Source: Asaia bogorensis
GTDB taxonomy: Bacteria; Pseudomonadota; Alphaproteobacteria; CACIAM-22H2
NCBI GenBank assembly: GCA_945901855.1
Contig: CAMDLT010000021.1
Coordinates: 764 to 64,763 of the forward strand
Direction: 5' to 3'
DNA: 64,000 bases
Part shown: piece by piece, positions 2,782-38,081 of the stretch
How the letters are laid out: every line of letters begins with the position of its first letter
Position numbering within the stretch: the stretch's first letter is position 1
Position numbers and translations under genes: made by a program
The notes under the pieces: generated by a model
Databases searched by the model: none
Told to the model about the DNA's origin: nothing
What the model saw: only the letters and a program-made list of their open reading frames with translations

Positions 2782-2799
2782 GGTTCCATTTTATATTTA

Positions 2800-2814: not shown

Positions 2815-2859
2815 CGAGAGCAAAAATTGCTCCGACGGTGGGAGGCACGCAGGCGATCA

Positions 2860-3993: not shown

Positions 3994-4016
3994 AGAACAA
4001 AAAAGGGAGAGAAACC

Positions 4017-7032: not shown

Positions 7033-7405
7033 GCGTTTCGAGCCGGGGCCACACGGCGTTTGCGGGTTTTCAGTCGCGCTCCTCCAGCCAAATGTGCCCG
7101 ATCGCGCGTCAGTATTGCGCGGCATCTCCCACATCCTGCAACGTATGCATATCCCTTGGATCGCGACTTGGGCTGCAGTCCGTTCCGTTAGCGCACCGTC
7201 GAACAAGGCCTATCTTCGTCTGGAAAGCGGTCGGACTTTCTTGGTGAATTGTCGAGCGCTGGCGGCGCCGCGACGGGGAGCCGACCGCTGCGACGCGGCG
7301 TCGGCTCTCAAAAAGTTCACGAAACCGCAACATGCTTCGAACGCATGCTTGGTACCTCCGTTGGATACGCGCCCGCGTTGGGCACGTCGAATCGGAGAAA
7401 TACTC

Positions 7406-8644: not shown

Positions 8645-8711
8645 AGGCGAACCGGGCGGCGGCAGATCCGCTCGCCGCCCGGATTTCCCTTCGTCGCACC
8701 TGGCCATTTCG

Positions 8712-9584
8712 ATGCGCGCACGGAATCGCTCCTGGCTGCTGTTCGCATTGCTTGCCCCGGCTTTGGCGTTGTTCGCATTGCTGACGTTCTATCCGTTGGT
8801 GCGGCTTCTTTTGCTGTCGTTTGCCGCAACCGATCATGGTTTCGAAGGGGCGACCTTCGTCGGCTTCGAAAACTATACGGAATTGTTGGACGGGCGGTCG
8901 TTCCGCCGCGCGGCCTTGAACACGGCGACGTTCGCGCTGGTTGCCACGGTCGCCGAAGTTTTGGTCGGATTGGGGTTGGCGTTGCTGCTGGACCGGCAAT
9001 TCGCATTCCGGCGCGCCCTGACGCTGGTGGTGCTCGCCCCTTACGTGCTGTCGACGGTCGTCGTCGCGGCGATCTGGCGCGCCTGGTTCCACTACGACAT
9101 CGGCTTTCTCAACAACGCGCTGCGTTCCGTCGGACTCGACGGCGTGCCGTGGCTGTTCGACCCGAATATCGCCTTGCTGTCGATCGCGCTCGCCGATGTC
9201 TGGCAGAACGCGCCCTTTTGTTTCCTGATTCTGTATGCGGGTCTGCGCTCCATTCCGCCCGAACTCTACGAAGCCGCGCGCATCGACGGGGCAGGTGCGT
9301 GGCGGCGCTTTCGCGACGTGACCCTGCCGTTGCTGTCGCCCTATCTGTTCGTGGCGGCTTTGATGCGCACGCTCGATTCTTTCAAATTGTTCGACAAGGT
9401 TTACGCGATGACCGGCGGCGGGCCCGGCAACGCAACGGAAACCCTGTCGATGTTCGTGCACCGCCTCGCGTTTCGATTTTTCGACATCGGGCTCGCGAGC
9501 GCGGCGGCCATCGTGATGATCTTGGTTGCGGGCGCTTTGGGGGCGGTCTACGCGGCGCGGTTGCTGCAACCGGAGACGCGCTGA
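8712..9584 (+). CDS. ABC transporter permease (MalF-like)
   Basis: ATG at 8712 within the listed ORF 8025..9584. EAA loop ELYEAARIDGAGAWRRFRDVTLP. Confidence 0.8.
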   Translation: MRARNRSWLLFALLAPALALFALLTFYPLVRLLLLSFAATDHGFEGATFVGFENYTELLDGRSFRRAALNTATFALVATVAEVLVGLGLALLLDRQFAFRRALTLVVLAPYVLSTVVVAAIWRAWFHYDIGFLNNALRSVGLDGVPWLFDPNIALLSIALADVWQNAPFCFLILYAGLRSIPPELYEAARIDGAGAWRRFRDVTLPLLSPYLFVAALMRTLDSFKLFDKVYAMTGGGPGNATETLSMFVHRLAFRFFDIGLASAAAIVMILVAGALGAVYAARLLQPETR

Positions 9585-10411
9585 TGGGAAGCGACCCCAA
9601 AGCCGGACCGCTGCGCATCGCGCTGGCGCTGGCCGCGGCGGCGCTGTTCGCGCTGCCTTTGGTGTGGGCCCTTGCAACCTCCCTCAAGCCGCCGGGCGAA
9701 TATGTTTCGTCGTCGGCAACGTTGCTGCCGCGCGAATTCACGCTCATGCATTACGAGGCGCTGGCCAGTTCGCGCATCTGGCGTTTGGTGCTCAACAGCG
9801 CGATCGTGACGCTCGGCACGACGGCGCTTGCATTGGCAGCGGCGCTGCCCGCGGCCTATGCGCTCGCACGCCTTGCGTTTCCGCGCCGTCTCGATACGGC
9901 TTTCCTCGCTCTCGTGCTGATTGTGAAGCTAACCCCGCCGATTGTGCTGGCGGTACCCCTCTATCAGGTGCTGCGCACGTTGAGGCTGCTGGATACGTTG
10001 GCAGGGCTCGTGCTGGTCAATCAGATTTATGCGTTGCCGTTTGCGATCTGGATGCTTCTGGGTTTCGTTCGCGACGTGCCCGTCGCCTACGAGGAGGCAG
10101 CCGCCATCGACGGCGCCGGCCTCGCGCGCCGGATCGTCCAGATCGTCGTCCCCGTGTTGGGGCCTGGGTTGGCGGCAACGGGCGTACTGGTCGCGATCGC
10201 GGCGTGGAACGAGTTTCTGTTTGCGTTCCTGTTCGTGCAGTCGCCTTCGAATTTCACCCTGCCGACTTACGTTGCCACGCGCATCAACGAAGACGAGACG
10301 CTGTGGGGCCAGCTTTCGGCGATCGGCGTTTTGGCATCGCTGCCGATCCTGGCGATGGTCGGCTTCGTGCATCGCGCCTTGTCGCGCGGCTTTGCGGGCG
10401 GAATGAACTGA
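9584..10411 (+). CDS. ABC transporter permease (MalG-like)
   Basis: ATG at 9584 overlaps the upstream stop. EAA loop YEEAAAIDGAGLARRIVQIVVP. No ATPase gene follows. Confidence 0.8.
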   Translation: MGSDPKAGPLRIALALAAAALFALPLVWALATSLKPPGEYVSSSATLLPREFTLMHYEALASSRIWRLVLNSAIVTLGTTALALAAALPAAYALARLAFPRRLDTAFLALVLIVKLTPPIVLAVPLYQVLRTLRLLDTLAGLVLVNQIYALPFAIWMLLGFVRDVPVAYEEAAAIDGAGLARRIVQIVVPVLGPGLAATGVLVAIAAWNEFLFAFLFVQSPSNFTLPTYVATRINEDETLWGQLSAIGVLASLPILAMVGFVHRALSRGFAGGMN

Positions 10412-10450
10412 ACGCGGTTGCGGCAGCGCTGCAAAGGGACGACAAGCGCG

Positions 10451-11299
10451 TTACACGGCAAGACTTCCGATCGCGAAGCCGAGCGCGGCAACAGTTGCGG
10501 CGACGAGTGCCAGCGGAACAAGCGGGTGGATGTTGTTGAGCCTGCGGAACAGATTGCACAGGAAACCAACGGCGACTTGCGGCGGCGTACGCGGGCTCTT
10601 GGCGTATTCCATGGCCGCTTTCACGACGTAGAACACCCCGGTATTGGCGGCGAACGCCGCGTGCCGCAGGAACGTGGCGCCGCGCGGCACGATCAGATAG
10701 TTGCACTTGAGCAGGATGCGCTGGCGATCTGCAGGATTGTACTGTCCTTCGACCCAATGCAGCTCGCGATGGAAATCGAGCAAGCCAAAATCGTATGTGG
10801 CGAACGCTTTTTCGACGCCGCTGTCGTGGAACACGACCTTGTAGGTCGCGTCCGACTGCAGATAGATCAGCGCGCGCACGACGACGCTTCCCGACAGGAA
10901 GCGCAGATTGCCGTCGTAGTGCCGGTCGAAAAGACCCTGGTCGCCGCCGCGATCCATGTTGTAGTGCGACAGATACAGCTCGTCGGTGTGCTTCATCGCC
11001 ACGATTTCGCAGCCGTCGGGAACGTGGCGCTCGATCAGGGTGCGGATCGGCGCGCCGTCGCGCAGGCGGTCGATCCGTTCGATCGTCGCTTCCGGCAGGG
11101 TGCGAACATAGACATGCTTCGACGGCCGCTGAAGCATCTCCTCGCGATACTGCGTCTCCGCCCATTGGACCAGACCGTCGACCGTCGCCCGGTCGACTGG
11201 ATCGTCGAACCGGCCGAGAGTCGCTGGAAAAAGCCGCGCGGCGCGGGCTTTGGGCCCGGCGTCGGCGCTTGGGTCGGTCAGATTCAGCGTACCGCTCAT
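10451..11299 (-). CDS. Uncharacterised 283-aa protein with a C-terminal transmembrane anchor (possibly an oxygenase-like lipid-modifying enzyme)
   Basis: ATG at 11299 with an AAGGAGAG RBS; the start overlaps the stop of the upstream gene (ATGA). Soluble body with an H-x-D...H pattern (MKHTDE...HRELHW), then a hydrophobic tail HPLVPLALVAATVAALGFAIGSLAV. The listed ORF 10451..11932 includes a non-coding N-terminal extension that overlaps the neighbouring gene. Confidence 0.5.
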   Translation of the reverse strand: MSGTLNLTDPSADAGPKARAARLFPATLGRFDDPVDRATVDGLVQWAETQYREEMLQRPSKHVYVRTLPEATIERIDRLRDGAPIRTLIERHVPDGCEIVAMKHTDELYLSHYNMDRGGDQGLFDRHYDGNLRFLSGSVVVRALIYLQSDATYKVVFHDSGVEKAFATYDFGLLDFHRELHWVEGQYNPADRQRILLKCNYLIVPRGATFLRHAAFAANTGVFYVVKAAMEYAKSPRTPPQVAVGFLCNLFRRLNNIHPLVPLALVAATVAALGFAIGSLAV

Positions 11300-25339: not shown

Positions 25340-26290
25340 ATGCCGCACGTTGCCGTCGTGGGCAGCTACAACCGCGATCTTAGTTTTGCCCTGCAGCGCA
25401 TGCCGGTGGCGGGCGAAACCGTGATCGGCGCCGATCTGGCCGAGGGGCCGGGCGGCAAAGGCAGCAACCAAGCCATTCAAGCCGCCAAAGCCGGGGCGCT
25501 TGTCGCGCTGGTGGCAGCACTTGGCGCGGATGCCGCCGCGCGCGACGCGCTGGCATTTTGGCGGCCCTTGAAAATCGACGTTCGCGGCATCGCGCGCAAA
25601 ACCAAGGCGCCGACCGGATCGGCCGCGATTCTGGTCGAAGCGGGCGGTGCCAATCGCATCGTCGTGGCGTCCGGCGCCAATGCGCTTTTGTCGGCGGCCG
25701 ATATGCGCAAGGCAGCATCGGTTTTCAAACGCGCGCGCGTGGTCGTGGGCCAGCTTGAAGTGCCGGTGGCGGCAACGCTTGCGGCGTTTGCGCTGGCGCA
25801 TCAAGCAGGGGCAACGACCTTGCTCAATGCCGCGCCGGCTATGGGGCCGTTGCCGCAACGCTTGCTGCATCGCATCGATATTTTGGTCGCCAACGAAATC
25901 GAGGCTTGCGCGCTGACGGGCCTGCCGCCCGCAACGCCGCTGCAAGCGCTGGTGGCGGCCCTGCGCCACTACGCCAGGCGAACCGCGATCGTCACGGCAG
26001 GCGCAGCGGGCGCGTGGTTGGCCGACCGCACGAACGCGCCGATCCGCATCGCAGCGCCGCCCGCCGAAATCGTCGATACGACAGGTGCGGGCGATGCGTT
26101 TGTCGGCGCATTTGCCGCGCGTTTTGCAGCGGACGGCGATGCGTATCTGGCGACCTGTTGGGGCGTCGCGGCCGGTTCGCTTGCGTGCCGGAAGCGCGGC
26201 GCCGCATCGTCTTACGCCGGGCATGCGGCGATCGCGCGGCTGGCCCGCCCTTATGCCCGCTTGACGTTGCCCGGCGGCAAGGCGCCATAA
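25340..26290 (+). CDS. PfkB-family carbohydrate kinase (ribokinase-like)
   Basis: ATG at 25340. VAVVGSYNRDLSF...GGKGSNQAIQAAKAG and a C-terminal DTTGAGDAFVGAF anion hole. The listed ORF 24188..26290 has an artefactual extension. Confidence 0.85.
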   Translation: MPHVAVVGSYNRDLSFALQRMPVAGETVIGADLAEGPGGKGSNQAIQAAKAGALVALVAALGADAAARDALAFWRPLKIDVRGIARKTKAPTGSAAILVEAGGANRIVVASGANALLSAADMRKAASVFKRARVVVGQLEVPVAATLAAFALAHQAGATTLLNAAPAMGPLPQRLLHRIDILVANEIEACALTGLPPATPLQALVAALRHYARRTAIVTAGAAGAWLADRTNAPIRIAAPPAEIVDTTGAGDAFVGAFAARFAADGDAYLATCWGVAAGSLACRKRGAASSYAGHAAIARLARPYARLTLPGGKAP

Positions 26291-26313
26291 AGTCGGGCCA
26301 ATAGGAGCCCGCT

Positions 26314-28761
26314 ATGGAAGCACAAAGCACCACACTGACCCTGCCGATCGACGGCATGAACTGCGCCTCGTGCGTCGCGCATGTCGAAAAAGCGCTGGCC
26401 GCCGTGCCGGGCGTTGCGGCCGTCGCGGTCAATCTTGCGACCGCGCGCGCCAGCGTGCGGTTGAGCGACCCCGCAGCGCGCGCAACCTTGGCAAAGGCCG
26501 TCGAAAAAGCGGGCTACGCGGTGCCGACCGAAACGGTGTCGTTCGACATCGCGGGCATGAGTTGCGCATCGTGCGTCGCGCATGTCGAAAAGGCGATCCG
26601 CGCGGTTCCGGGCGTGGCCGATGCGGCCGTCAATCTTGCCACGGCCAGCGCATCCGTCACGCGCCATCGCGCGGTTGCCGCCGACGGCGCCGTCGAAAGC
26701 GCGGTTGCCAAAGCGGGCTACGATGCGCGCTTGCGCACGGACAGCGCAACCGGCCTCGACCCGCAAGTGCCCGACACGCAAGCGCTTGAAGCCGCAGCGC
26801 TGGGCCGCAGGGCGTTGACGGCGTGCGTGCTGGCGCTGCCGATCTTCGTGCTGGAGATGGGCGCGCATCTGGTGCCCGCGATGCGCGGCTGGATCGCGCG
26901 CGACATTTTGGATGCGGTGTTTTTTGCGCTGACGACGGTCGTGCTGTTCGGGCCGGGCTGGCGCTTCGTTGCGGTCGGCGTGCCCATGTTGCTGCGCGGC
27001 ACGCCCGACATGAACGCGCTTGTCGCGGTCGGCACGCTGTCGGCCTACGGCTATTCGAGCGTGGCCGCCTTTGCGCCCGACTGGCTGCCCGCGGGCACGG
27101 CGCATGTCTATTTCGAAGCGGCCAGCGTGATCGTGGCGCTGGTGCTGGTCGGGCGCTATCTGGAAGCGCTCAGCCGCGGGCGCACCAGCCTTGCCATCAA
27201 GCGCCTGGTCGGGTTGCAGCCGCAGACGGCGTCGGTCGAACGCGACGGCGTTTTTGGCGACGTGCCGCTGGGCGAGGTGCGCTTGGGCGACCGCATTCAG
27301 ATGCGCCCCGGCGCGCGCGTGCCGGTGGACGGCGTCGTGCGCGCGGGCGAAAGCCATCTCGACGAATCGATGCTGACCGGCGAGCCGATGCCGGTCTTCA
27401 AACAGACGGGCGCCGGCGTCGTCGGCGGCACGCTCAATACGACGGGAAGTTTCGTTTTCGAAGCGACCAAGATCGGCGCCGACACGCTGCTGGCCCAGAT
27501 CCTGCGCATGGTCGAAGACGCGCAAGCCGCCAAATTGCCGATCCAAGCGCTGGTCGATCGCGTGACCGCCTATTTTGTGCCCGCGATCTTTGCCGCTGCG
27601 GCAGCGACGTTTTTGCTGTGGGCGCTGCTGGGACCGGCACCGGCGTCGAGCTTTGCGCTGGCCAACGCGGTGGCGGTTTTGATCGTCGCGTGCCCGTGCG
27701 CCATGGGGCTTGCCACGCCGACCTCGATTCTGGTCGGAACCGGGCGCGCAGCCGAACTCGGCATTCTGTTCAAACGCGGCACGGCGCTGCAAACGCTGCG
27801 CGCGGTGCGCGTCGTCGCATTCGACAAAACCGGCACTTTGACCATCGGCAAGCCTGCGCTGGAAAATCTTGTGCCCGCGCCCGGTTTTGCGCGCGCATCG
27901 GTGCTGGCGGCGGTCGCGGCCGTCGAAGCGTCGTCCGAACATCCGCTGGCAAGCGCCATCGTTGCCGCCGCGCGCGCCGAGGGGATCGCCCCGGCGCAAG
28001 CCACGGCGTTTCGCGCCGTGCCCGGCATGGGGCTTGGCGGCCAGTTCGAAGGCGTGCGCGTCGAGATCGGCGCCGACCGCTACATGGCGTCGCTGGGGAT
28101 CGCCGTCGACAGCTTTGCAGCCGACGCGGCGGCGTTCGGCAAGGCCGGCAAGACGCCGCTTTATGCCGCCATCGACGGCAAGCTTGCGGCCCTGTTGGCC
28201 GTCGCCGATCCGATCCGCGCGGAAGCGGCGGCGGCGATCCGCGCATTGCAAGCGCTTGGCCTCAAAACCGCGATGGTCACGGGCGACAATGCCGCGACGG
28301 CAGCGGCGGTCGCGGCGCGCCTCGGCATCGACCATGTCACGGCCGAAACGCTGCCGCGCGGCAAGCGCGAGGCGGTCGAAGCGCTGCGCGCGACCTTCGG
28401 CGCGGTCGCGTTTGTCGGCGACGGCATCAACGATGCGCCCGCCCTGGCGGAGGCCGATGTCGGCATCGCCGTGGGCACGGGCACCGACATTGCGGTCGAA
28501 AGCGCTGCGCTGGTTCTGATGTCGGGCGATCTTGGCGGCGTCGTGCGCGCGATCGCGCTGTCGAAGGCGACGATGCGCAATATCGAAGAGAATCTATTCT
28601 GGGCGTTTGCGTACAATACGGCGCTTGTCCCGGTGGCGGCGGGCGCGCTCTATCCGGCGTTCGGGGTGCTGCTCTCGCCGATGCTGGCGGCGGCGGCCAT
28701 GGGCCTTTCGAGCGTATTCGTGGTCGCCAACGCGCTGCGCTTGCGGAAATTTGCTGCATAG
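26314..28761 (+). CDS. copA: Copper-translocating P1B-type ATPase
   Basis: Two N-terminal HMA domains (GMNCASCVAHVEKA, GMSCASCVAHVEKA), the CPC membrane motif (VACPCAMGLATPTS), DKTGTLT phosphorylation site and GDGINDAPAL. Confidence 0.95.
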   Translation: MEAQSTTLTLPIDGMNCASCVAHVEKALAAVPGVAAVAVNLATARASVRLSDPAARATLAKAVEKAGYAVPTETVSFDIAGMSCASCVAHVEKAIRAVPGVADAAVNLATASASVTRHRAVAADGAVESAVAKAGYDARLRTDSATGLDPQVPDTQALEAAALGRRALTACVLALPIFVLEMGAHLVPAMRGWIARDILDAVFFALTTVVLFGPGWRFVAVGVPMLLRGTPDMNALVAVGTLSAYGYSSVAAFAPDWLPAGTAHVYFEAASVIVALVLVGRYLEALSRGRTSLAIKRLVGLQPQTASVERDGVFGDVPLGEVRLGDRIQMRPGARVPVDGVVRAGESHLDESMLTGEPMPVFKQTGAGVVGGTLNTTGSFVFEATKIGADTLLAQILRMVEDAQAAKLPIQALVDRVTAYFVPAIFAAAAATFLLWALLGPAPASSFALANAVAVLIVACPCAMGLATPTSILVGTGRAAELGILFKRGTALQTLRAVRVVAFDKTGTLTIGKPALENLVPAPGFARASVLAAVAAVEASSEHPLASAIVAAARAEGIAPAQATAFRAVPGMGLGGQFEGVRVEIGADRYMASLGIAVDSFAADAAAFGKAGKTPLYAAIDGKLAALLAVADPIRAEAAAAIRALQALGLKTAMVTGDNAATAAAVAARLGIDHVTAETLPRGKREAVEALRATFGAVAFVGDGINDAPALAEADVGIAVGTGTDIAVESAALVLMSGDLGGVVRAIALSKATMRNIEENLFWAFAYNTALVPVAAGALYPAFGVLLSPMLAAAAMGLSSVFVVANALRLRKFAA

Positions 28762-28824: not shown

Positions 28825-29769
28825 TTGCAAAATCTGCCGAGCGCGCTGATCGATCGCGCGCAACGCCACTTCCGGCTTTTGCCGCCCGACCTGTCGGCAT
28901 CGCTGCTGATGCTGCTGGCGATGTTCGTCTTCACCGCGACCGGCGTGCTGGTGCGGATGGCGGCCGAATCGATGCCGATTTTCCAGATTCTGTTTTTGCG
29001 CCAAGTCCTGACGGTTGCGCTGATGTCGCCGCTTTTCTGGCGGCATCGGAACCAGATTCTGCATCCGCAGGGCATGCGCCTGCATTTGTTTCGCGGCTTC
29101 GCGGCGGTCGGCGCCATGAGCTGCGGCAACGCCGCCGTCATCTACATTCCCTTCGCCGACGTGACGGCCATCCAAATGTCGGAGGTGCTGTTCATCACCG
29201 CCTTGGCCGCCCTGTTTTTGGGCGAGAAAGTCGGCTGGCGGCGCTGGACGGCGACGCTCGTTGGTTTTACGGGCGTGGGCGTGATGCTGCAGCCGTTCTC
29301 GGGGCCGATCGAAACCTTCGCGCTGATCGCGCTGGTTGGATCGATGTTCGGCGCCATGTCGGTCATAACGCTGCGCTTTGGGTCGCGCCTGGACACGACC
29401 GAGACCGTGATCTTTTTCCAAAGCTGCGTCGTGATCGTGTGCATGGCGCCGCTGGCGTGGTGGTATTGGGTCCCGATCACCGCGCGCGGCCTCGGCATTT
29501 TGATGGTCATGGCCGTGATGCTGGCGCTGGGCACGCTGCTGTTTACCAACGCGTTCCGGCGCGGCAACGCGTCGGCGATCGCGCCGTTGCAGTATCTGCG
29601 CTTGCTGATGATGGCGGGCGTCGGCTACTGGCTTTACGACGAAACGCCGGGGCTTGCGACGGTCGTCGGCTCGGCGCTGATCGTGGGTGCGGCGATCTAC
29701 ACGCTGCGCCGCAACGCAATCCGCCAGTCGCCGATCCCGGCCGCCCCGCGTCCCGACAGCCCCGCCTGA
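28825..29769 (+). CDS. DMT superfamily transporter (EamA-like)
   Basis: Ten predicted TM segments with two EamA repeats. Confidence 0.7.
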   Translation: MQNLPSALIDRAQRHFRLLPPDLSASLLMLLAMFVFTATGVLVRMAAESMPIFQILFLRQVLTVALMSPLFWRHRNQILHPQGMRLHLFRGFAAVGAMSCGNAAVIYIPFADVTAIQMSEVLFITALAALFLGEKVGWRRWTATLVGFTGVGVMLQPFSGPIETFALIALVGSMFGAMSVITLRFGSRLDTTETVIFFQSCVVIVCMAPLAWWYWVPITARGLGILMVMAVMLALGTLLFTNAFRRGNASAIAPLQYLRLLMMAGVGYWLYDETPGLATVVGSALIVGAAIYTLRRNAIRQSPIPAAPRPDSPA

Positions 29770-29784
29770 GAAATACGCGCGCCT

Positions 29785-30624
29785 TCAATCCCTCTTGGCG
29801 GTTTCGATGCGCGCCAACGCCGCGCGCAGCGCGCGCATTTCCAGCGCAAGCGCGGCAAGTTCGGCCGCCATGGCCGCTTGCGGATCGGATTTGGGGGCAT
29901 CGGCAGCATCGGCATGCAAACGCGTCATCGAATCGACGATCAGCGCGATGAACAGGTTCAGCACCACGAATGTCGATATCAAGATGAACGGCAGGAAATA
30001 GAGCATCGCCGCCGAATGTTCGGCCAGGATCGGCTTGACGATCTCGCCCGACCAGCCGTCCAGCGTCATAAGCTGGAACAGCGTCATGAAGGTTGCCCCC
30101 AGATCGCCGAACTGCTCGGGGTGGGTTTGTCCGAACAGTTTGGTGCCCATCACCGCAAAAACGTAGAACACCAACGACAGCAACGCGACGATGGCCGACA
30201 TGCCGGGCAGCGAGCGCAGCAACGCTTCGACCACCACGCGCATCGACGGCACGATGGAAACGAGCCGCAAGACGCGCAAGACGCGAAGCGCGCGCAGCAC
30301 CGACAGCGGCCCGGACGCCGGTACCAGCGCAATCCCCACCACGATCAGATCGAACCAGTTCCAGCCGCCGCGAAAAAACCGGCCGCCATGCGCAAGGAGG
30401 CGGATCGCAAGCTCGCCGACAAACACCGCCAAGATCGCGCTGTCGAGCGCGCGCAAGATTGGGCCGATCGCGTCCACGACGCTCGCCGACGTTTCGAGGC
30501 CGAGCGTGACGGCATTGAGCACGATCAAGCCCATCACGATGCGTTGGATTGGCGGCGATTCGATCCAAGCGCGCAACCGCGCGCGCCAAGGATTTGCAGG
30601 CTCGGGAAGGGAAATGTCGGTCAT
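29785..30624 (-). CDS. Bacterial voltage-gated ion channel (BacNaV / NaChBac family, 6TM, 279 aa)
   Basis: ATG at 30624. S4 with four Arg at every third position (LRALRVLRVLRLV). Pore FQLMTLDGWSGEIVKPI, against NaChBac FQVVTLESWASGVMRPI. C-terminal coiled coil. The rest of the listed ORF 29785..33255 is antisense to cheA. Confidence 0.85.
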   Translation of the reverse strand: MTDISLPEPANPWRARLRAWIESPPIQRIVMGLIVLNAVTLGLETSASVVDAIGPILRALDSAILAVFVGELAIRLLAHGGRFFRGGWNWFDLIVVGIALVPASGPLSVLRALRVLRVLRLVSIVPSMRVVVEALLRSLPGMSAIVALLSLVFYVFAVMGTKLFGQTHPEQFGDLGATFMTLFQLMTLDGWSGEIVKPILAEHSAAMLYFLPFILISTFVVLNLFIALIVDSMTRLHADAADAPKSDPQAAMAAELAALALEMRALRAALARIETAKRD

Positions 30625-30753
30625 GGTGCAGGCTCCGGGGGGAAGCAGGCGACTCGCTGGACGGCGACTATAGAAAACCGCAAGCGACGGCGATAGCGCT
30701 AGGCGAAGGCTGCGGCGCGCGCTAATAATTGATTGCGTTATTCGAGGGTTTTC

Positions 30754-31056
30754 ATGGCGTCTGATGCGGCAACGGCACGGATCGAACTGGCGGCGACCTG
30801 CGATATCGCAGGGGCGATCGCCTTGCACGGCGAACTGCTCGAAAAACTGGCGGCCGGCACGCCCACCTTGCTCGACGCCAGCGGCGTTGCCGAACCCTCC
30901 ACCGCGCTGGTCCAAGTGGTCGAGTCGGCTGCGGCCGCCTTTGCGTCGCGCGACTTGCGATTCGGTCTCTACAATCCGTCGGACGCGCTGTGCATTGCCT
31001 ACGAAGACATGGGCCTGTACGGCGCTTTGATGGGCCGCATCGCGATGGAAATCTGA
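30754..31056 (+). CDS. STAS-domain protein (anti-sigma-factor-antagonist-like), first gene of the che operon
   Basis: ATG at 30754 (MASDAATARIELAATCDIAGAIALHGELLE...). STAS fold, about 100 aa. Confidence 0.6.
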   Translation: MASDAATARIELAATCDIAGAIALHGELLEKLAAGTPTLLDASGVAEPSTALVQVVESAAAAFASRDLRFGLYNPSDALCIAYEDMGLYGALMGRIAMEI

Positions 31057-31068
31057 CGGCGGGCGCGC

Positions 31069-33174
31069 ATGGCAAGCGAAGAAGAAGAACTTCAGGGCAT
31101 CTTTTTCCTCGAATGCGAGGAACTGCTTGCCAGCGCCGAACAGAGCGTCGAAACGCTGCGCGAAGGCGACGGCTCCGACGATGCGATCCACGCGCTGTTC
31201 CGGTCGGTCCACTCCATCAAGGGCGGGGCCGGCGCCTTTGGCATGGACAAACTCGCCAAGTTCGCGCACGCGTTCGAATCCTATATGGATCTGCTGCGCA
31301 AGGGGCGCGCCGAACTTGACGCGACCGCCGTCAAGTTGCTGTTCGACGGCGTCGACGTGCTGCGCATGCTGGTCGAAGAATCGCAGCACGGCACGCCCGC
31401 GCCGGCCGTTCGCTACGATGCGGCGTTTGCAGCACTGCGTGCGGCGGCGGGCCTCGACGATGCGCCCGCCGACGAACTGGCGCCGGGCGCGGATTTCGAT
31501 CCGATGGCGGCGTTCGTCGCCGAAGCGGCCGCCGCAGAAGCGGCGGCGCCCACGACGCGCTACAAAATCCGGTTTGTGCCGGGCCCCGGGTTGCTTGCGG
31601 CAGGCGTCGATCCGCTGCGCATCCTGGGCGCGCTCAAAGCGATGGGCAGTTTGGCGGTCGAAATCGACGCCAGCACCGTGCCGGCACTGGCCGATCTGGA
31701 GCCCGGCGTTTGCCATTTCGCGTGGTCGCTGGCGCTCGACACGGCAGCGCCGTTCGCCGATCTCGACGAAATTCGCGAGATGATCGACGATTTGGCAGTT
31801 TTCGAAATCGAAGCCCCACCCCCACCCGAAACGCCCCCACCCGAAACGCCCGCGCTCGAAACGCCCTTGCTCGAAACGCGGGCGCCCGAGCTGCAAGCGC
31901 CGGTCGCAAGCGGCGCCAAGCCGTCCGCAGCGCCAGCCCATGCGGCACGCGAAAAACCCGTCGCGACCGTGCGCGTCGACGTGCCGAAACTCGAACGGCT
32001 GGGCAATATGGTGGGCGAGCTCATCATCACCCAGGCGTTTTTGGCGCGTCAGGCCAGCGGCCTCGATCCCGACGCGCATCGCCGCCTGTTCCGCGCCCTC
32101 GACGACATGTCGCAGCATATTCGCGACCTTGCCGATGCGGCGACATCGATCCGCGCGCAACCGCTGAAGGTCGTCTTCTCGCGCTTCGGGGCCGTGGTGC
32201 GCGATCTGGAAAAAAGCACGGGCAAACGCATCCGCCTGGAAATCGAGGGCGATTCGACCGAAATCGACAAAACGGTCGTCGAACGGCTCGGCGAACCGCT
32301 GACGCACCTGATCCGCAATTCGATCGACCACGGCATCGAATCGCCGGAGAAGCGCGAAGCGGCGGGCAAGGATCCGGTCGGTCGGCTGCGTCTGGCCGCC
32401 GAACAGCGCGGCAGCCAGGTCGTGATCGAATTGTCCGACGACGGGGCGGGCGTCAATCGGCCGCGCGTCCTCAAAATCGCGATCGAGCGCGGCCTGGTCG
32501 CGCAAGGCGCGACGCTCGCCGACGACGAAATCGACGCGTTGATTTTTCTGCCCGGCTTCTCGACCGCCGATTCCGTGACGTCGGTGTCCGGGCGCGGCGT
32601 CGGCATGGATGCCGTGCGCCAGTCGATCGGCGAGATGGGCGGGCGCGTGGCGTTGGGCTCGACGCCGGGCAAGGGCACGGTGTTCTCGCTCTATCTGCCG
32701 CTGTCGCTGGCCGTGCTCGACGCGATGGTGACGCTCGTCGCGCGCAACAACTACCTGATCCCGCTCGGCGACATCGTCGAAAGCCTGCGCCCGACCGCCG
32801 CCATGATCGTGCGCCTCGACCGCAACCGCGCCATGCTGGCATGGCGCGGGGCGATGGTGCGAATCCTGGTGCTGGGCGAGGAATTCGACGTGCCGGATTT
32901 TGTCGCCGAGCCGACCGAGTGCATTTTGGTCGTGGTGCGCGCGGCAGGCGGCGAGATGCTGGCCTTGCAGGTCGACGATCTGATCGGGCAGGAACCGGTC
33001 GTGGTCAAAAGCCTCGAAAAGAATTTCCGCAAAGTGGCGGGCCTGTCCGGCGCCACGATTTTGGGCGACGGGCGGCCTGCCCTCATTTTGGACCCGCAAT
33101 CGTTGGGCACGGCCGGCGCACGGCGCAAACGCCTCGAAGCCCAGAACGATCCCGCGAGCGAGCAAGGGACATAG
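31069..33174 (+). CDS. cheA: Chemotaxis histidine kinase CheA
   Basis: HPt domain with HSIKGGAGAFG, a P2-like region, a Pro-rich linker, the HATPase domain, and a C-terminal CheW-like domain. Confidence 0.95.
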   Translation: MASEEEELQGIFFLECEELLASAEQSVETLREGDGSDDAIHALFRSVHSIKGGAGAFGMDKLAKFAHAFESYMDLLRKGRAELDATAVKLLFDGVDVLRMLVEESQHGTPAPAVRYDAAFAALRAAAGLDDAPADELAPGADFDPMAAFVAEAAAAEAAAPTTRYKIRFVPGPGLLAAGVDPLRILGALKAMGSLAVEIDASTVPALADLEPGVCHFAWSLALDTAAPFADLDEIREMIDDLAVFEIEAPPPPETPPPETPALETPLLETRAPELQAPVASGAKPSAAPAHAAREKPVATVRVDVPKLERLGNMVGELIITQAFLARQASGLDPDAHRRLFRALDDMSQHIRDLADAATSIRAQPLKVVFSRFGAVVRDLEKSTGKRIRLEIEGDSTEIDKTVVERLGEPLTHLIRNSIDHGIESPEKREAAGKDPVGRLRLAAEQRGSQVVIELSDDGAGVNRPRVLKIAIERGLVAQGATLADDEIDALIFLPGFSTADSVTSVSGRGVGMDAVRQSIGEMGGRVALGSTPGKGTVFSLYLPLSLAVLDAMVTLVARNNYLIPLGDIVESLRPTAAMIVRLDRNRAMLAWRGAMVRILVLGEEFDVPDFVAEPTECILVVVRAAGGEMLALQVDDLIGQEPVVVKSLEKNFRKVAGLSGATILGDGRPALILDPQSLGTAGARRKRLEAQNDPASEQGT

Positions 33175-33176
33175 CC

Positions 33177-33683
33177 ATGGAAACGCAACGCAAAGCCGCC
33201 ACGGGCGAAACCGACGATTCCCAATTCGTCTCGTTCGAAATCGGGACCAGCACATTTTTGATCCCGATCGACAAGGTCGTCGAGTTCCGCACCTGGAGCG
33301 AACCCACGCCCGTTCCGCACACGCCCGACTTCGTGCGCGGCATCATCAATATTCGCGGCGAGATCGTGCCGATCTACGACGTTGCCGCGCGCCTGGGACG
33401 CGGCGCGACGCAAGCCCATGCGCGCCATGTGGTGGTCATCGTGCGCTCGGACGATGCGCGTTCGGTGGGGCTGCTTGTCGATTCGGTGACCGACATCGTC
33501 AATGCGCGCAGCGCCGACATGGCGTCGATCCCGCGCATCGAAGGGGGCGACGCGACGCCGTTCATGCGCGGCGTCGTGTTCGTGGCCGAGCGCATTCTGG
33601 GCGTCACCGACGTCGACCGGCTGGTGCAGGAAACCCTGCCCGACGGCGCGCTCGAACTGCCCGCCGAGCCGCAGGACGCATGA
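33177..33683 (+). CDS. cheW: Chemotaxis coupling protein CheW
   Basis: ATG at 33177 after a GGGACATAGCC spacer. FVSFEIGTSTFLIPIDKVVEF...IRGEIVPIYD is the CheW fold. Confidence 0.9.
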   Translation: METQRKAATGETDDSQFVSFEIGTSTFLIPIDKVVEFRTWSEPTPVPHTPDFVRGIINIRGEIVPIYDVAARLGRGATQAHARHVVVIVRSDDARSVGLLVDSVTDIVNARSADMASIPRIEGGDATPFMRGVVFVAERILGVTDVDRLVQETLPDGALELPAEPQDA

Positions 33684-34495
33684 TCGAGACCGCGCCCGCA
33701 TTCACCGGCAGCGATCTGGCATTTTTTGCCGCCGCCATGCGCGCGCGCACGGGCATCGTGCTGGCCGACGGCAAAGCGGCGCTGGTGCTGCGCCGCTTGT
33801 CGCCGCGGCTGCGCGAAACCGGGTGCCGCGATTTCGCCGACTACCGCGCGCTGCTCGAGGATCCCGAGGCGCCGGAATGGACGCGCGTCGTCGAATTGCT
33901 GACCACCAACCATTCGCGCTTTTTTCGCGAGATCCACCATTTCAAACTGCTCGCGCGCCATCTGGATACGCTGCTGGCGGCAGGGCAGGCGCGTTTGCGG
34001 CTGTGGTCGGCGGCGTGCGCGTCGGGGCAGGAGCCCTATTCGATGGCGCTGGTGCTGCACGACCGACTGGCCGACCAGAAAAATGTCGATTCGCGCATCT
34101 TGGCAACCGACATCGACCGCACGGTGCTGGCGGCGGCCGAGGCCGGGCTCTATCGGCCCGAGGATGTCGGCCATCTGCCGGCCTTTGCGCGCGCCCACAT
34201 GGCCAAGGCGGCCGACGGCACCTTTTCGGTATCGGGGGCGATGAAAAACTATGTACGCTTCAAGCCGCACAATCTGGTCGGCAGCGAATGGCCCATACAG
34301 GGGCCGTTCGATGCGATCTTTTGCCGCAACATGCTGATCTATCTCGACCCTGCCGACCAAACCAAAGTGGTGGCGCGGCTTGCGAACCTCGTCAGACCGG
34401 GCGGCCTTCTGTGCCTGGGCCATTCGGAAATCGTGCGTGACAAAACTTTGCCTCTCGAACGCCTTGGAGTGCCCAGCAGCTATGTCCGACTCTGA
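33680..34495 (+). CDS. cheR: Chemotaxis protein methyltransferase CheR
   Basis: SAM-binding LRLWSAACASGQEPYSMA and FCRNMLIYLD motifs. Confidence 0.9.
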   Translation: MIETAPAFTGSDLAFFAAAMRARTGIVLADGKAALVLRRLSPRLRETGCRDFADYRALLEDPEAPEWTRVVELLTTNHSRFFREIHHFKLLARHLDTLLAAGQARLRLWSAACASGQEPYSMALVLHDRLADQKNVDSRILATDIDRTVLAAAEAGLYRPEDVGHLPAFARAHMAKAADGTFSVSGAMKNYVRFKPHNLVGSEWPIQGPFDAIFCRNMLIYLDPADQTKVVARLANLVRPGGLLCLGHSEIVRDKTLPLERLGVPSSYVRL

Positions 34496-35576
34496 CACGC
34501 CGAAAAAACGCGTCCGCGTCATGATCGTCGACGACTCCGCGTTGGTGCGCGAAATGCTGACCGGGATTCTGTCGGCCGATCCCGACATCGAAGTGGTGGG
34601 AACCGCACCCGACCCGATCGTGGCGCGCGACAAGATCAAAACGCTGGCGCCCGACGTGCTCACGCTCGACGTCGAAATGCCGCGCATGAGCGGCATCGAG
34701 TTTCTCGAACGGCTCATGCGCCTGCGCCCGATGCCGGTCGTGATGATTTCGACGCTAACGCAAGAGGGCGCCGACACCACGCTGCGCGCCCTCGAGCTTG
34801 GCGCCGTCGACTATGTCGCCAAGCCCACCCAGCGCCTCAGCGACTCGTTCGCCGAACTCAAAGAATCGATCTGCAGCAAGGTCAAGATGGCGGCCGGTGC
34901 GCGCGTGCGCGCGACGCCCGCCGCGCGCCATGTACCCGCATCGGGTCCCGTTTCGGGCGACGCGCCGCCCCAGCGGATCGCAACCCATCTCGACGCGATC
35001 GCGATCGGCGCCTCCACGGGCGGGGTGGAAGCGCTGGGCGAGATCTTGTCCGCGATTCCCCCCGGCGCGCCCGGCATCTTGATCGTGCAGCACATGCCCG
35101 GCAATTTCACCGGGCGATTCGCCGCCCGCCTCGATGCCAGTCTCAATCTGAAAGTGGTCGAGGCGAGCGACGGCGCAGAAATTCTGCGGGGCCATGTCTA
35201 TATCGCGCCCGGCGGTCGCCATTTGGCCGTGTCGCGCGCGGGCGGAACGCTCAAATGCAGCCTCAGCGACGGGCCGCCGGAAAGCGGGCACGTACCCTCG
35301 GTCGACCATTTGTTCCGCTCCTTTGCAGCGCTTGGCGACCGGGCGGCGGGCGCCATTTTGACCGGCATGGGCCGCGACGGGGCGGTCGGCCTCAAACACA
35401 TGCGCGACGCGGGCGCCTTGACGATCGCGCAGGACGCTGCAACATCCGTCGTCTATGGTATGCCGAGGGTTGCAGCGGAAACGAACGCCGCAGCGCTGGT
35501 GCTGCCGCTGACGCGCATCGCAGCGGCGCTGCTGGCAGCGCCGAATGGCGCAAACAAAGAGGGAGGATCGACATGA
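34482..35576 (+). CDS. cheB: Chemotaxis response regulator protein-glutamate methylesterase CheB
   Basis: ATG at 34482. REC domain (VMIVDDSALVREML...LDVEMPRMSG) and a methylesterase domain (IGASTGG...HMPGNFTGRF...GMGRDGA). Confidence 0.9.
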   Translation: MSDSDTPKKRVRVMIVDDSALVREMLTGILSADPDIEVVGTAPDPIVARDKIKTLAPDVLTLDVEMPRMSGIEFLERLMRLRPMPVVMISTLTQEGADTTLRALELGAVDYVAKPTQRLSDSFAELKESICSKVKMAAGARVRATPAARHVPASGPVSGDAPPQRIATHLDAIAIGASTGGVEALGEILSAIPPGAPGILIVQHMPGNFTGRFAARLDASLNLKVVEASDGAEILRGHVYIAPGGRHLAVSRAGGTLKCSLSDGPPESGHVPSVDHLFRSFAALGDRAAGAILTGMGRDGAVGLKHMRDAGALTIAQDAATSVVYGMPRVAAETNAAALVLPLTRIAAALLAAPNGANKEGGST

Positions 35577-35962
35577 CCAACGCCCGCAGTTTGCGCGTCC
35601 TCGTCGTCGACGATCAGGGCAGCATGCGCATGCTCGTTCGCAGCTATCTTCGCAAACTCGGCTTCGAATCGATCGACGAAGCCGAAAGCGGCCAAGCGGC
35701 GCTGAAGGAGCTGCAGAACCGGCCCTACAATCTGGTCATTTCGGACATCAACATGGATGGCGGCACCGGCCTCGATCTGCTGAAGGGCATGCGCGCGCAC
35801 CCTGTTCTCAAGCGCACGCCCGTCATCATGGTCACGGGAAATTCCGACAAAGCCACGGTCGCCGCGGTCGTGCAGGCGGGCGTCAACGGCTACGTCGTCA
35901 AGCCCGTGTCGCTTGAGGCGCTCAAGGCGCGCATCCTGCATATTCTGGGCCCCCTTACTTGA
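35573..35962 (+). CDS. cheY: Chemotaxis response regulator CheY
   Basis: The ATG at 35573 overlaps the cheB stop. Single REC domain (LVVDDQGSMR...ISDINMDGGTGLDLLK...KPV). Confidence 0.85.
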   Translation: MTNARSLRVLVVDDQGSMRMLVRSYLRKLGFESIDEAESGQAALKELQNRPYNLVISDINMDGGTGLDLLKGMRAHPVLKRTPVIMVTGNSDKATVAAVVQAGVNGYVVKPVSLEALKARILHILGPLT

Positions 35963-35981
35963 GCTTGCGGAAGCGAACGAC

Positions 35982-38081
35982 ATGAAAATCTCCACCAAAC
36001 TTTCGGGTCTGATCGTCGTCGCATCGCTGCTGTCGGCGGGGCTGTTCGGGTATCTAACCTACCTTGCGCATGTCGCGCTCAATGCCGAGGAGCGCGTGAT
36101 TGCGGGCTCGACCTATGCCGGGCCGATGCGCGATCTGGGCGAGGCGATCTACCGGCACAAGCTCAATATGCTTAAAAATGTCGGCGTGGCTTCCCCCGAC
36201 AATGACGGGCTCGCGCGCGCCAAGGAAACGATCCGCGCGGTGCTTGTGCGCATCGACGCGCTCGATGCGCGCACGCAGGCAAAATTCGGCACGGCGCCCG
36301 CGGCCCCCGGCCTCAGGCCCGCGATCGAGCGCATACTGGCGCTGCGCCATGGGCCGACGCAAAATTCCGCCAATGTCATCGAGTTTCACGAAGCGACCTT
36401 CGCGCAGTACCGCGAATTGACTTTTTCCGCCGCCGACACGTTCGAGATTTTGGGCGATCCGGACGTCGATTTTGTTTTGATGTTCCAGAACCAGATCGAA
36501 GTCTATCCCAACATCCTGATGTCGCGCGCGTATCTTGCGGGCCGCTCGTTCGTTTTCGACGAAACGGCGAGCGGGCGTTTTGCGCATACCGAAACGCTGC
36601 AGATCCAGATCAACCGGCTGATCGAGCAGCAGGGCGTGATCGCCGAAAACATGCGCCGCCTGACGCGCAATGTGGGCCGCGCCGAGAAAGTGCAAGGCAA
36701 CGGGCGCGACTGGACCAATCGCGCGCCCATCGCAGCGGCGCTGGCCGAGCGCTCGCAGCGCCTGGAGAACGGCTATCTCGCCGCTCTCAACAAATCGCCT
36801 TCGCCGGTGGGCTCGGTCATGGTCGGCGAAGAAGAGATGTTTTTGGCGACGCTCCTCGACGGCTGGCGCTCGCTGACAACGCAAGTTGATCGCGCGCTTG
36901 CCGATCGCATGGTGGCCAATACGCGCACCTTCTATTTGCAGACTGGCTTGCTGGCGATAAGCCTGCTCGTGCTGTTCGGCGCGATGAGCCTGGGCGTTCG
37001 CGGCGTGTCGCGCGACATCGAAGCGACCAACGCGCTTACCATGCGCATCGCCAAGGGCGAGCTCGACGTGGTCGTGCCGGGCACGGACCGGCCCGACGAA
37101 ATCGGCGGACTGGCGCGCTCGATCGAAATCTTGCGCAGGAATTCGCTGGCGCAGCGCGAACTCCAGCAAAAAGAGCGCGAGACCGCCCGGCATCTGGCCG
37201 ATACGGCCGCGCGCGTGGCCGATTCGGTGGATGCGATCCGCGCGGCAGCCAGCGAAATTTCGCAAGGCAGCAACGACCTTGCCACGCGCACCGAGCGCCA
37301 GGCGTCGGCCCTGCAGCAGACCGTCGCGACGATGGCGGAAATTTCGGCAACCGTTTCGACCAACGCGCTCAATTCCGACCAGGCGCGCAAATTGGCCGCC
37401 GACGCGCTGGGACGCGCCGAAGGCGGCGGCCATGCGGTCACCAGCGTGGTCACGGCCATGTCGGGCATCGAAGCCTCGTCCGCGCGCATTGCCGCAATCA
37501 TCCAGGTGATGGAAGAAATTTCGTTCCAGACCAAACTGCTCGCGCTCAATGCGGCCGTCGAAGCCGCGCGCGCGGGCGAAACGGGCAAGGGCTTTGCGGT
37601 GGTCGCCCAGGAAGTGCGCTCGCTCGCCGACCGCTCGCGCCAAGCCTCGCAGCAGATCCGCGATCTGATCGCCGAGAGCACGCGCGAAGTGGGCCAGGGG
37701 GTGCAATTGGCGGGGGCGGCAGGCGAGGCGCTGGGCACGATCATCGAGATCGTGCGCAAGGTTGCCGACATTGCGCCCGAAATCGCGGCCGGCAGCCGCG
37801 AGCAGGCGCGCAGCATCACCGAGATCAACAAGGCGCTCGGCGATCTCGACGCCGCGACGCAGCAGAACGCTGCCTTGGTCGAACAAAGCTCGGCCTCGGC
37901 CGCGTCGCTGGCCGAACAAGCGGGCCAGCTTGTCGAAGTTGTATCGAGCTTCCGCGCCGATGGCGGGGCGGACGGGGCGGCGAAGCCAGCACCGGCCGCC
38001 GCGCCCAAGGCGGCGGCGCCAAAAACGGTTGCGGCGAAAAAAGCGCCCGCACGCGACGCCGACTGGGACGAGGAGTTCTAA
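35982..38081 (+). CDS. Methyl-accepting chemotaxis protein
   Basis: ATG at 35982. N-terminal TM segment, a periplasmic region, HAMP, and the MCP signalling domain (NALNAAVEAARAGETGKGFAVVAQEVRSLA). Confidence 0.9.
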   Translation: MKISTKLSGLIVVASLLSAGLFGYLTYLAHVALNAEERVIAGSTYAGPMRDLGEAIYRHKLNMLKNVGVASPDNDGLARAKETIRAVLVRIDALDARTQAKFGTAPAAPGLRPAIERILALRHGPTQNSANVIEFHEATFAQYRELTFSAADTFEILGDPDVDFVLMFQNQIEVYPNILMSRAYLAGRSFVFDETASGRFAHTETLQIQINRLIEQQGVIAENMRRLTRNVGRAEKVQGNGRDWTNRAPIAAALAERSQRLENGYLAALNKSPSPVGSVMVGEEEMFLATLLDGWRSLTTQVDRALADRMVANTRTFYLQTGLLAISLLVLFGAMSLGVRGVSRDIEATNALTMRIAKGELDVVVPGTDRPDEIGGLARSIEILRRNSLAQRELQQKERETARHLADTAARVADSVDAIRAAASEISQGSNDLATRTERQASALQQTVATMAEISATVSTNALNSDQARKLAADALGRAEGGGHAVTSVVTAMSGIEASSARIAAIIQVMEEISFQTKLLALNAAVEAARAGETGKGFAVVAQEVRSLADRSRQASQQIRDLIAESTREVGQGVQLAGAAGEALGTIIEIVRKVADIAPEIAAGSREQARSITEINKALGDLDAATQQNAALVEQSSASAASLAEQAGQLVEVVSSFRADGGADGAAKPAPAAAPKAAAPKTVAAKKAPARDADWDEEF

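Follow-up and report, generated by a model that had tools for sequence, protein, structure and literature searches.

A NavAb-like bacterial voltage-gated channel with a conserved non-canonical selectivity filter, encoded divergently from a chemotaxis operon

The closest described relatives of the channel studied here are NavMs of Magnetococcus marinus and NavAb of Arcobacter butzleri, two members of the family of bacterial voltage-gated sodium channels (BacNaVs). The channel is encoded on the minus strand at positions 29785–30624 of a 64,000-nucleotide stretch of contig CAMDLT010000021.1 (assembly GCA_945901855.1, Asaia bogorensis), and the whole of this stretch is hereafter called the window. 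It belongs to the same group as NavMs and NavAb and resembles both in its six-transmembrane fold, its four S4 arginines and its counter-charges, as well as in a short loop between the P2 and S6 helices and a C-terminal neck followed by a heptad helix. Unlike them, it has Asp for Glu at the high-field-strength (HFS) site of the selectivity filter, Gly for Ser178, Gly for Met181 and Glu for Gly182 (NavAb numbering), so that Na+ selectivity would not be expected of it.

Other described channels offer partial parallels. A native lack of Na+ selectivity in the BacNaV family has its best precedent, in our view, in NsvBa of Bacillus alcalophilus (DeCaen 2014, PMC4225499). Both NsvBa and the window's protein (through D189) have Asp as the HFS residue, and the outer filter of each contains two glycines, but NsvBa belongs to the Bacillus group, lacks Glu8 and has its glycines at filter positions 6 and 8 (GxG) rather than 4 and 7; the residues at positions 6 to 8 of the window's filter are S6, G7 and E8. 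CavMr of Meiothermus ruber (TLEGWVD; Shimomura 2020, PMC7041947) has Gly4 and the single-domain voltage-gated architecture in common with the window's protein, whereas its Glu3, its Asp7, its long Cys-containing P2–S6 loop and its membership of the AnclNav set distinguish it. The closest experimental proxies for G190 and G193 of the window's channel are the NavAb mutants S178G (‘LivAb’) and S178G/M181A (JGP 2026, PMC12919392; PDB 9uc3), which are built on a scaffold of the same group and have Gly4 and, in the double mutant, a small residue 7. These mutants keep Glu3 and Gly8, and they display a preference for Li+ (S178G) or a Ca2+-to-Na+ permeability ratio (PCa/PNa) of 0.47 (S178G/M181A), not Ca2+ selectivity. 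At the level of the motif only, CatSper3 (TVDGWTD) and CatSper4 (TQDGWVD) have the same T-x-D-G-W core in a one-domain subunit, and CatSper conducts Ca2+ and controls flagellar motility; these subunits differ in being eukaryotic, in forming a heterotetramer with many auxiliary subunits and in having Asp7. NavBP of Bacillus pseudofirmus OF4, also of the BacNaV family, is reported to take part in chemotaxis (PMC4453477).

The channel and its place among BacNaVs

The channel gene runs from an ATG at 30624–30622 to a stop codon at 29785–29787 on the minus strand and translates to 279 amino acids. An earlier reading of this DNA, made from the letters without database searches (the sequence-only reading), had assigned the channel a span of 29785–30753; the gene does lie within it but reaches only to 30624, and 30753 is the last base of the intergenic region. 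The start at 30624 is fixed by an MTD N-terminus common to homologs, by a GGAG that precedes the ATG by 8 nt and by the conservation of the leader. Mechanically extended, the open reading frame (ORF) reaches 33255 (1156 amino acids) and runs antisense through cheA, because the 65% G+C DNA has no stop codon there. This frame (29785–33255, minus strand) is one of several spurious long antisense ORFs that the G+C content produces in the window, another being a 694-amino-acid frame opposite copA (26251–28335, minus strand), and ORF length alone is misleading in this DNA.

The protein matches Pfam Ion_trans (E=4.3e-44, residues 26–238), and its best single-domain relatives with solved structures are NavMs (5hvx, 7e-67) and NavAb (3rvy, 2e-58). 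NCBIfam gave no family match for the channel or for the EamA and STAS proteins encoded beside it. An AlphaFold2 model of the monomer, based on an alignment of 102 diverse relatives, had a predicted local distance difference test score (pLDDT) of 90.1 and helices corresponding to S1–S6, P1 and P2; it replaced a poor model (pLDDT 62) obtained with a 24-sequence alignment of the close clade. The top Foldseek matches of the model were all NavMs, NavAb or CavAb structures, with template modeling scores of 0.90–0.91 against NavAb structures (normalized to the target) and a root-mean-square deviation of about 2 Å. Pfam, the model and Foldseek thus show the six-transmembrane plan, in which a voltage sensor (S1–S4) is followed by a pore (S5–P1–filter–P2–S6).

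The S4 segment reads RALRVLRVLR (30265–30294, minus strand), and its gating charges R111, R114, R117 and R120 are invariant across the 102 relatives. The counter-charge and charge-transfer residues of NavAb, E32, N49, F56, E59, R63 and D80, have E44, D61, F68, E71, R75 and D92 as their aligned counterparts in S1–S3 of the window's channel. The C-terminal 31 residues (248–278; 29791–29883, minus strand) are modeled as a single helix, with block-mean pLDDT of about 94–98 over residues 251–279. Its hydrophobic residues M252, L256, L259, M263, L266, L270 and I273 are spaced 4-3-4-3-4-3, which amounts to three heptads, and three of them (L259, L266 and L270) do not vary within the close clade. From the model and this spacing, the helix is a putative contributor to a four-helix coiled coil of the tetramer. 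We conclude that the 279-residue protein is a genuine voltage-gated channel of the BacNaV family. The sequence-only reading had recognized as much, together with a canonical S4 with four arginines at every third position and a C-terminal coiled coil; the translation, the Ion_trans match, the NavMs and NavAb matches and the model uphold the first of these claims, and the arginines and the coiled-coil-like heptad helix agree with the other two.

We placed the channel in a tree of 78 sequences, made up of the query, database matches, genome loci and the FASTA set of Shimomura et al. 2020 (PMC7041947 supplement 1), with neighbor-joining as the only tree method and 200 bootstraps. The query and its close relatives fall in the NavAb-like group with NavMs, NavSp1 and NavPz, and the split between this group and the AnclNav set plus the Bacillus group was recovered in 0.995 of the bootstraps. 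In the alignment the channel is 44% identical to NavSp1 and, over the full length, 42% to NavMs and 39% to NavAb; it is 36% identical to each of NaChBac, NavBP, NsvBa and CavMr. The AnclNav set, which includes CavMr and NavPp, has a bootstrap value of 0.87, and the query lies outside it. Insertions between P2 and S6 (of about 10 and 5 residues) occur only in CavMr and NavPp, and the query's loop is of the short NavAb type. The filters of the AnclNav set have Gly (CavMr) or Asp (NavPp) at position 4 and an acidic residue at position 7; in the query, Gly4 is present, position 7 is Gly and not Asp, and the acidic residue is displaced to position 8. We considered and rejected membership of the CavMr/AnclNav set for the channel, given its position in the tree and the lack of both a long Cys-containing P2–S6 loop and an acidic position 7.

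The TLDGWSGE filter and its conservation

The selectivity filter of the channel reads TLDGWSGE (T187–E194; 30043–30066, minus strand). The alignment of FQLMTLDGWSGEIVKP with FQVMTLESWSMGIVRP is free of gaps across the filter, which aligns ungapped to TLESWSMG of NavAb and NavMs, and in the model its TLDG forms the loop between the P1 helix (175–186) and the P2 helix (191–202). The sequence-only reading had called the filter, as TLDGWSG, non-canonical, while allowing for a misaligned filter region; the ungapped alignment and the position between P1 and P2 show that the motif is real and correctly aligned. It differs from TLESWSMG at positions 3, 4, 7 and 8 and retains the T, L and W framework, and it departs from the Na+-filter consensus T-L-E-S-W-x-x-G at positions 3, 4 and 8.

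All 23 of the nearest 90%-identity clusters (68–97% identity) have TLDGWSGE. A scan of genomes for channel loci, with one genome per species and loci labeled L001 onward, found the motif identical in 36 loci whose channels are 45–100% identical to the query, with no amino-acid change. At the DNA level these 36 loci have 21 distinct versions of the motif, and seven of its eight codons vary synonymously, the exception being that for Trp, which has no synonym. Unchanged residues combined with synonymous codon turnover indicate that purifying selection acts on the exact TLDGWSGE sequence and keeps it strictly conserved.

Carriers of the motif include metagenome-assembled genomes (MAGs) labeled Telmatospirillum, Azospirillum, Tagaea and Rhodospirillaceae (73–81% identity), a well-supported Caulobacterales/Hyphomonadaceae clade (52–61%; Aquidulcibacter, UKL13-1, Phycosocius and Maricaulis), an unclassified proteobacterial MAG and an Oscillochloris MAG of the Chloroflexi (45%). 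Monophyly of the carriers was recovered in none of the 200 neighbor-joining bootstraps, and the motif may stem from common ancestry, from convergence or from horizontal transfer. Three Chloroflexi channels, from Oscillochloris (L076, 1585–2391), Oscillochloridaceae (L063, 6001–6786) and Candidatus Viridilinea (L045, 1986–2795), have the filters TLDGWSGE, TLDGWNGD and TLDSWSGD, respectively. The filter Ser is encoded by AGC in L076 and by TCN in all proteobacterial copies, and the AGC codon fits either a long independent history or convergence on the motif.

Full-text literature searches for the filter motif returned no relevant paper. We also searched 1.84 billion representatives (50% clusters); the matches listed are dominated by eukaryotic four-domain channels, whose scores sum over four domains, and 30 of the 150 listed are single-domain. 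Among these nearest 30 single-domain representatives of the matches listed, nine have TLESWSMG, 19 have non-canonical filters (including TLEGWADI, TVEGWPDI, TLDGWPNI, SLDGWTSE and TGEAWPDI) and two yielded no filter. NavAb-like sequences with TLEGW are already included in the data set of Shimomura et al. (PMC7041947). TLDGWSGE is therefore one of many natural variants, and non-canonical filters are common in its near relatives.

Two further filter classes were observed in the course of the scan. Some 35 genomes of Acetobacteraceae, among them Roseomonas, Roseococcus, Rubritepida, Falsiroseomonas and Craurococcus, have a gene for a NavAb-like channel in which TLDDWANI is the natural filter (L011, L014, L020, L022–L031, L034–L044, L047, L048, L052, L054–L057, L061, L069 and L083). 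This filter is nearly that of the engineered Ca2+-selective channels CavAb and CaChBac, TLDDW(S/A)D, and we found no characterization of a TLDDWANI channel; in the search for native Ca2+ channels, these proteins may be more promising than the one in the window. Relatives from actinomycetes (Nocardia, Actinocorallia, Planomonospora, Streptosporangium and others) have Gly or Ala instead of Leu at filter position 2, with filters such as TGEAWPDI, TGDAWSDI, TADGWSEI and TGDGWSDI, and constitute another uncharacterized filter class (L059, L062, L065, L067, L070–L072, L074, L075, L077, L078, L080–L082 and L084–L086).

Predicted ion selectivity

We predict, with a probability of about 0.5, that the channel is Ca2+-permeable and weakly selective, with PCa/PNa of roughly 0.3 to 10. 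The filter argues against classic Na+ selectivity and makes altered selectivity plausible, whereas high Ca2+ selectivity is not established, because the effects of a filter depend on its scaffold. Three of the four changed positions (3, 4 and 7) have mutants in related channels. At position 3, NsvBa (TLDSWGSG) does not discriminate among Na+, K+ and Ca2+ and regains Na+ selectivity through D186E alone, and NaChBac loses its selectivity with E192D (PMC4225499). At position 7, M181A raises PCa/PNa of NavAb from <0.05 to 0.36–0.47, also when combined with S178G, and the authors attribute the sorting of monovalent from divalent ions to Met181 (PMC12919392). At position 4, Gly is the key Ca2+ determinant in CavMr and NavPp (PMC7041947). 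Under the ‘beacon’ classification of a 2023 review, Gly at the position after the HFS site (HFS+1) makes a one-domain channel Ca2+-selective, whether the HFS residue is Glu or Asp, and the Ca2+-selective CatSper3 and CatSper4 pair Asp at the HFS site with Gly at position 4 (PMC10120453).

In the mechanism that we propose, the protein would be a homotetrameric, depolarization-activated, single-domain cation channel of the NavAb/NavMs-like branch. The four Asp189 side chains would form a shorter HFS ring, and Gly190 would remove the Ser hydroxyl site and widen the mouth. Gly193 would stand in place of the Met that excludes divalent ions in NavAb, and Glu194, at a position that is canonically Gly, may contribute an outer acidic ring. 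Together, the four changes would abolish classic Na+ selectivity and let Ca2+ pass alongside monovalent cations, and the channel would serve as a voltage-gated entry route for Ca2+ and other cations where external Na+ is scarce. The titles under which TLDGWSGE carriers are recorded, such as those of Lake Mendota bins, pond MAGs, UKL13-1 and Aquidulcibacter paucihalophilus, point chiefly to lakes and ponds. Marine bacteria are the source of the characterized TLESWSMG channels. In Na+-poor freshwater, a filter that passes Ca2+ would be plausible.

Several points weigh against a Ca2+-permeable, weakly selective channel. The freshwater argument is drawn from record titles and not from metadata. 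The predicted selectivity is read from single substitutions in other backgrounds, and such effects depend on the background: with TLEGW in the filter, CavMr is selective for Ca2+ and NavAb is not (PMC7041947, PMC12919392), and TLDDW filters do not make NavPp Ca2+-selective. NavAb S178G (TLEGWSM) has PCa/PNa and PK/PNa both <0.05, its change being a raised Li+ permeability (PLi/PNa 2.18), and the S178G/M181A mutant, with PCa/PNa of 0.47, is still more permeable to Na+ than to Ca2+ (PMC12919392). In addition, some BacNaV homologs yield no current on expression, namely those of H. elongata and T. turnerae (PMC7041947) and NavRh (PMC4225499).

It seems unlikely to us that the protein is an ordinary Na+-selective BacNaV in which the filter differences are tolerated variation and Na+ selectivity is essentially intact. 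The characterized members of the NavAb-like group are indeed Na+-selective, annotation pipelines already name the query's cluster-mates ‘voltage-gated sodium channel’, and NavAb tolerates the Ser-to-Gly change at position 4 with the low PCa/PNa and PK/PNa given above (PMC12919392). NavRh, with the non-canonical filter TLSSWET, was likewise found to be Na+-selective (PMC4225499). However, four of the eight filter residues differ here, and all four are fixed over 45–100% identity while synonymous codons turn over, a pattern that is not neutral drift. Asp3 alone abolishes Na+ selectivity in two BacNaV backgrounds (PMC4225499), and the loss of Met7 ends the exclusion of divalent ions in NavAb (PMC12919392).

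We are equally doubtful that the protein is a native, highly Ca2+-selective channel (PCa/PNa >10), which would make it a second kind of prokaryotic Cav, on a NavAb scaffold and with a CatSper-like T-x-D-G-W core. The combination of D3 and G4 is common to this filter and those of CatSper3 and CatSper4, the ‘beacon’ rule would class a channel with Gly at HFS+1 as Ca2+-selective (PMC10120453), and E194 would provide an outer acidic ring. Sister clades, moreover, carry TLEGWPDI and TLDDWANI, the latter almost the engineered TLDDW(S/A)D. Set against this, the acidic position 7 of CavMr, CavAb and CaChBac is missing, and of the Asp residues that the engineered pattern has at positions 3, 4 and 7 the query has only that at position 3. 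On the NavAb scaffold itself, TLEGWSM and TLEGWSA give PCa/PNa of <0.05 and 0.47, and literature of 2026 still calls CavMr the sole identified prokaryotic Cav (PMC12919392). CatSper is a heteromer with a different overall pore. The likeness to Ca2+-selective filters that the sequence-only reading had pointed out thus holds in part: Gly4 is common to TLDGWSGE and the TLEGWVD of CavMr, but CavMr belongs to a different subfamily (99.5% bootstrap), and the query has neither an acidic position 7 nor the Cys loop. A channel that is silent or shows some other phenotype is, in our estimate, highly improbable.

The chemotaxis operon, neighboring genes and implications

The channel gene is separated by 129 bp (30625–30753) from a divergent chemotaxis (che) operon on the plus strand. 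Its first gene encodes a STAS-domain protein of 100 amino acids (30754–31056; Pfam STAS_2, 9.4e-09) and is followed by genes for the histidine kinase CheA (701 amino acids, 31069–33174; Pfam Hpt, H-kinase_dim, HATPase_c and CheW), for CheW (168 amino acids, 33177–33683; 98% identical to a CheW-annotated gene of L001) and for the methyltransferase CheR (271 amino acids, 33680–34495; Pfam CheR, 1.2e-54, and CheR_N). The remaining genes encode the methylesterase CheB with a receiver domain (364 amino acids, 34482–35576; Response_reg and CheB_methylest in the L001 ortholog), a CheY-type response regulator (129 amino acids, 35573–35962; Response_reg in the L001 ortholog) and, last in the operon, a methyl-accepting chemotaxis protein (MCP; 699 amino acids, 35982–38081; HAMP and MCPsignal in the L001 ortholog). 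The back-to-back arrangement with a full che operon described from the sequence alone is therefore confirmed, the core STAS–CheA–CheW–CheR–CheB–CheY–MCP being complete. Pfam detected no P2 (CheY-binding) domain in CheA. The linker between its Hpt and dimerization domains contains Pro/Glu/Thr-rich repeats, PPPPETPPPETPALETPLLETRAPELQAP (window positions 31816–31900, residues ~250–278). We found no flagellar genes in the window.

A conserved element lies in the channel-proximal part of the intergenic region (30633–30673, minus strand) and consists of TATAGT (30667–30672), CG-N-CGA(G/T)TCG, a C-rich tract and GGAG (30633–30636). Seven loci retain it, with its first part in the form TATA(G/T)T, among them L009 and L010, where no che operon adjoins the channel. 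The che-proximal half of the spacer showed no conservation between lineages. A scan of positions 29500–31100 with the sigma-70 consensus found no promoter-like site, and the single weak terminator-like site that it gave does not exceed what shuffled sequence yields. We infer that the channel-proximal element may function as a promoter. Of the promoter region shared by channel and operon that the sequence-only reading had proposed, what stands is the adjacency; the conserved element stays with the channel in relatives that lack che, and there is no sigma-70 match.

The pairing with che is found in five of the nine lineages of the close clade (window/L001, L002/L008, L003–L006, L007 and L091/L092). 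All five have the same divergent STAS–CheA…MCP arrangement, and the L001 channel is 97% identical to the query. The other four lineages (L009, L010/L090, L087/L088 and L089) lack the pairing. In L010/L090 the order is EamA, channel, CHASE kinase, with EamA directly upstream of the channel and the che operon missing; in L087/L088 and L089 it is LysE, channel, HpcH, and L009 is probably organized likewise. Beyond the close clade, che genes are absent from the 6 kb around the channel in all of about 76 more distant BacNaV loci, which include every other TLDGWSGE carrier. Clustering of neighboring ORFs over 86 loci, with a crude gene filter based on G+C at third codon positions (GC3), revealed only within-lineage synteny and no partner common to different TLDGWSGE clades, and there is no conserved genomic association with che across independent lineages. 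Comparison of window positions 29785–38081 with L003 positions 2463–10828 showed that the che operon and the channel were inverted jointly as a single block, whose flanks (EamA on one side and an ATP-binding cassette (ABC) permease, substrate-binding protein and dihydrodipicolinate synthase (DHDPS) on the other) swap sides between the window/L001 and L002/L003 lineages. This joint inversion is mild evidence for linkage. Overall, the che pairing is lineage-specific synteny of one sub-lineage.

A coupling of channel and chemotaxis is possible but not indicated, because the upstream element stays with the channel and because sister lineages possess the channel with no che operon beside it. NavBP, which invites the comparison, is Na+-selective, has the filter TLESWAS and belongs to the Bacillus group. 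Functional coupling to the adjacent Che pathway would mean, for instance, that voltage-gated entry of Ca2+ or other cations tunes CheA signaling or motor switching, in the way suggested for NavBP of alkaliphilic Bacillus, with the divergent layout providing co-regulation, and we hold this to be rather improbable. Some observations would accord with it: five lineages, with channels 79–97% identical to the query, retain the pairing while the other flank differs; che and channel moved together in the inversion between window/L001 and L003; NavBP is reported to have a role in Bacillus chemotaxis (review PMC4453477); and Ca2+ influences flagellar reversal and chemotaxis in some bacteria (PMC7041947). 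These are opposed by the four sister lineages of the same close clade that lack the pairing and by its absence from the roughly 76 distant loci, which include every Caulobacterales and Chloroflexi carrier of TLDGWSGE. The upstream element, too, goes with the channel and not with che, and the che-proximal half of the spacer is not conserved. By our reckoning, the 6-kb surroundings of che operons take up a few per cent of a genome, and adjacency in one lineage out of many is roughly what chance would produce. The combined proposal, in which TLDGWSGE proteins are strongly Ca2+-selective channels with a CatSper-like Asp-Gly filter on the crystallizable NavAb scaffold and those of the che-paired Rhodospirillales lineage convert voltage into a Ca2+ signal for the neighboring chemotaxis system, we consider very unlikely.

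Convergent with the channel and 15 bp from it lies a gene for an EamA-family transporter (28825–29769, plus strand; Pfam EamA, 3e-24), which we regard as a neighbor only. An EamA gene also occurs near the channel in L010/L090, L002–L005 and L091, in differing arrangements. Whatever the arrangement observed in the close clade, a gene for a small-molecule exporter adjoins that of the channel, of the EamA family in some lineages and of the LysE family in the Tagaea-like ones (window 28825–29769; L010 4946–5887; L090 6946–7887; L087 7240–7941; L089 7237–7872), and this may be coincidence. Two genes from the channel, the window encodes a CopA-type P1B ATPase with two N-terminal HMA domains (26314–28761), which is found near the channel only in the window and L001 and not in other lineages. 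On this side of the channel are genes for a tripartite ATP-independent periplasmic (TRAP) transporter DctPQM, a dienelactone hydrolase, a PfkB kinase, the two-HMA CopA ATPase and EamA, and on the other side those for an ABC system, DHDPS, a phosphotriesterase, an opine-oxidase-like flavoprotein, an aspartate dehydrogenase and a CHASE hybrid kinase. Leaving the che operon aside, the surrounding genes belong to ordinary metabolism and transport. Neither Rfam RNA families nor tRNA genes turned up in scans covering the whole window.

What is new here is a conserved filter variant on a NavAb-like BacNaV, for which our full-text searches found no relevant paper; the type of channel is itself known. 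If the protein proved to be simply Na+-selective or non-selective, it would be a routine member of its family, and if it were both Ca2+-selective and coupled to che, it would be a bacterial counterpart of Ca2+-controlled flagellar steering. We consider it a reasonable candidate for patch-clamp recording or filter grafting that would not surprise a channel specialist, and the link to che adds little to its interest. To our knowledge, CavMr is the only characterized native prokaryotic Ca2+ channel, and we know of no solved structure for it; acidic residues are more numerous in the Ca2+ filters engineered into NavAb than in those of animal channels. An Asp-Gly filter that occurs naturally, and strictly conserved, on a NavAb scaffold would be easy to study by expression, by grafting into NavAb and by crystallization, and TLDGWSGE would test how the discrimination between Na+ and Ca2+ is set jointly by Gly at HFS+1, HFS side-chain length and Met7. 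The NavAb-like group holds many natural filters that are so far uncharacterized, TLDDWANI among them, and some filter types may track the ion composition of the habitat, as the record titles hint for TLDGWSGE.

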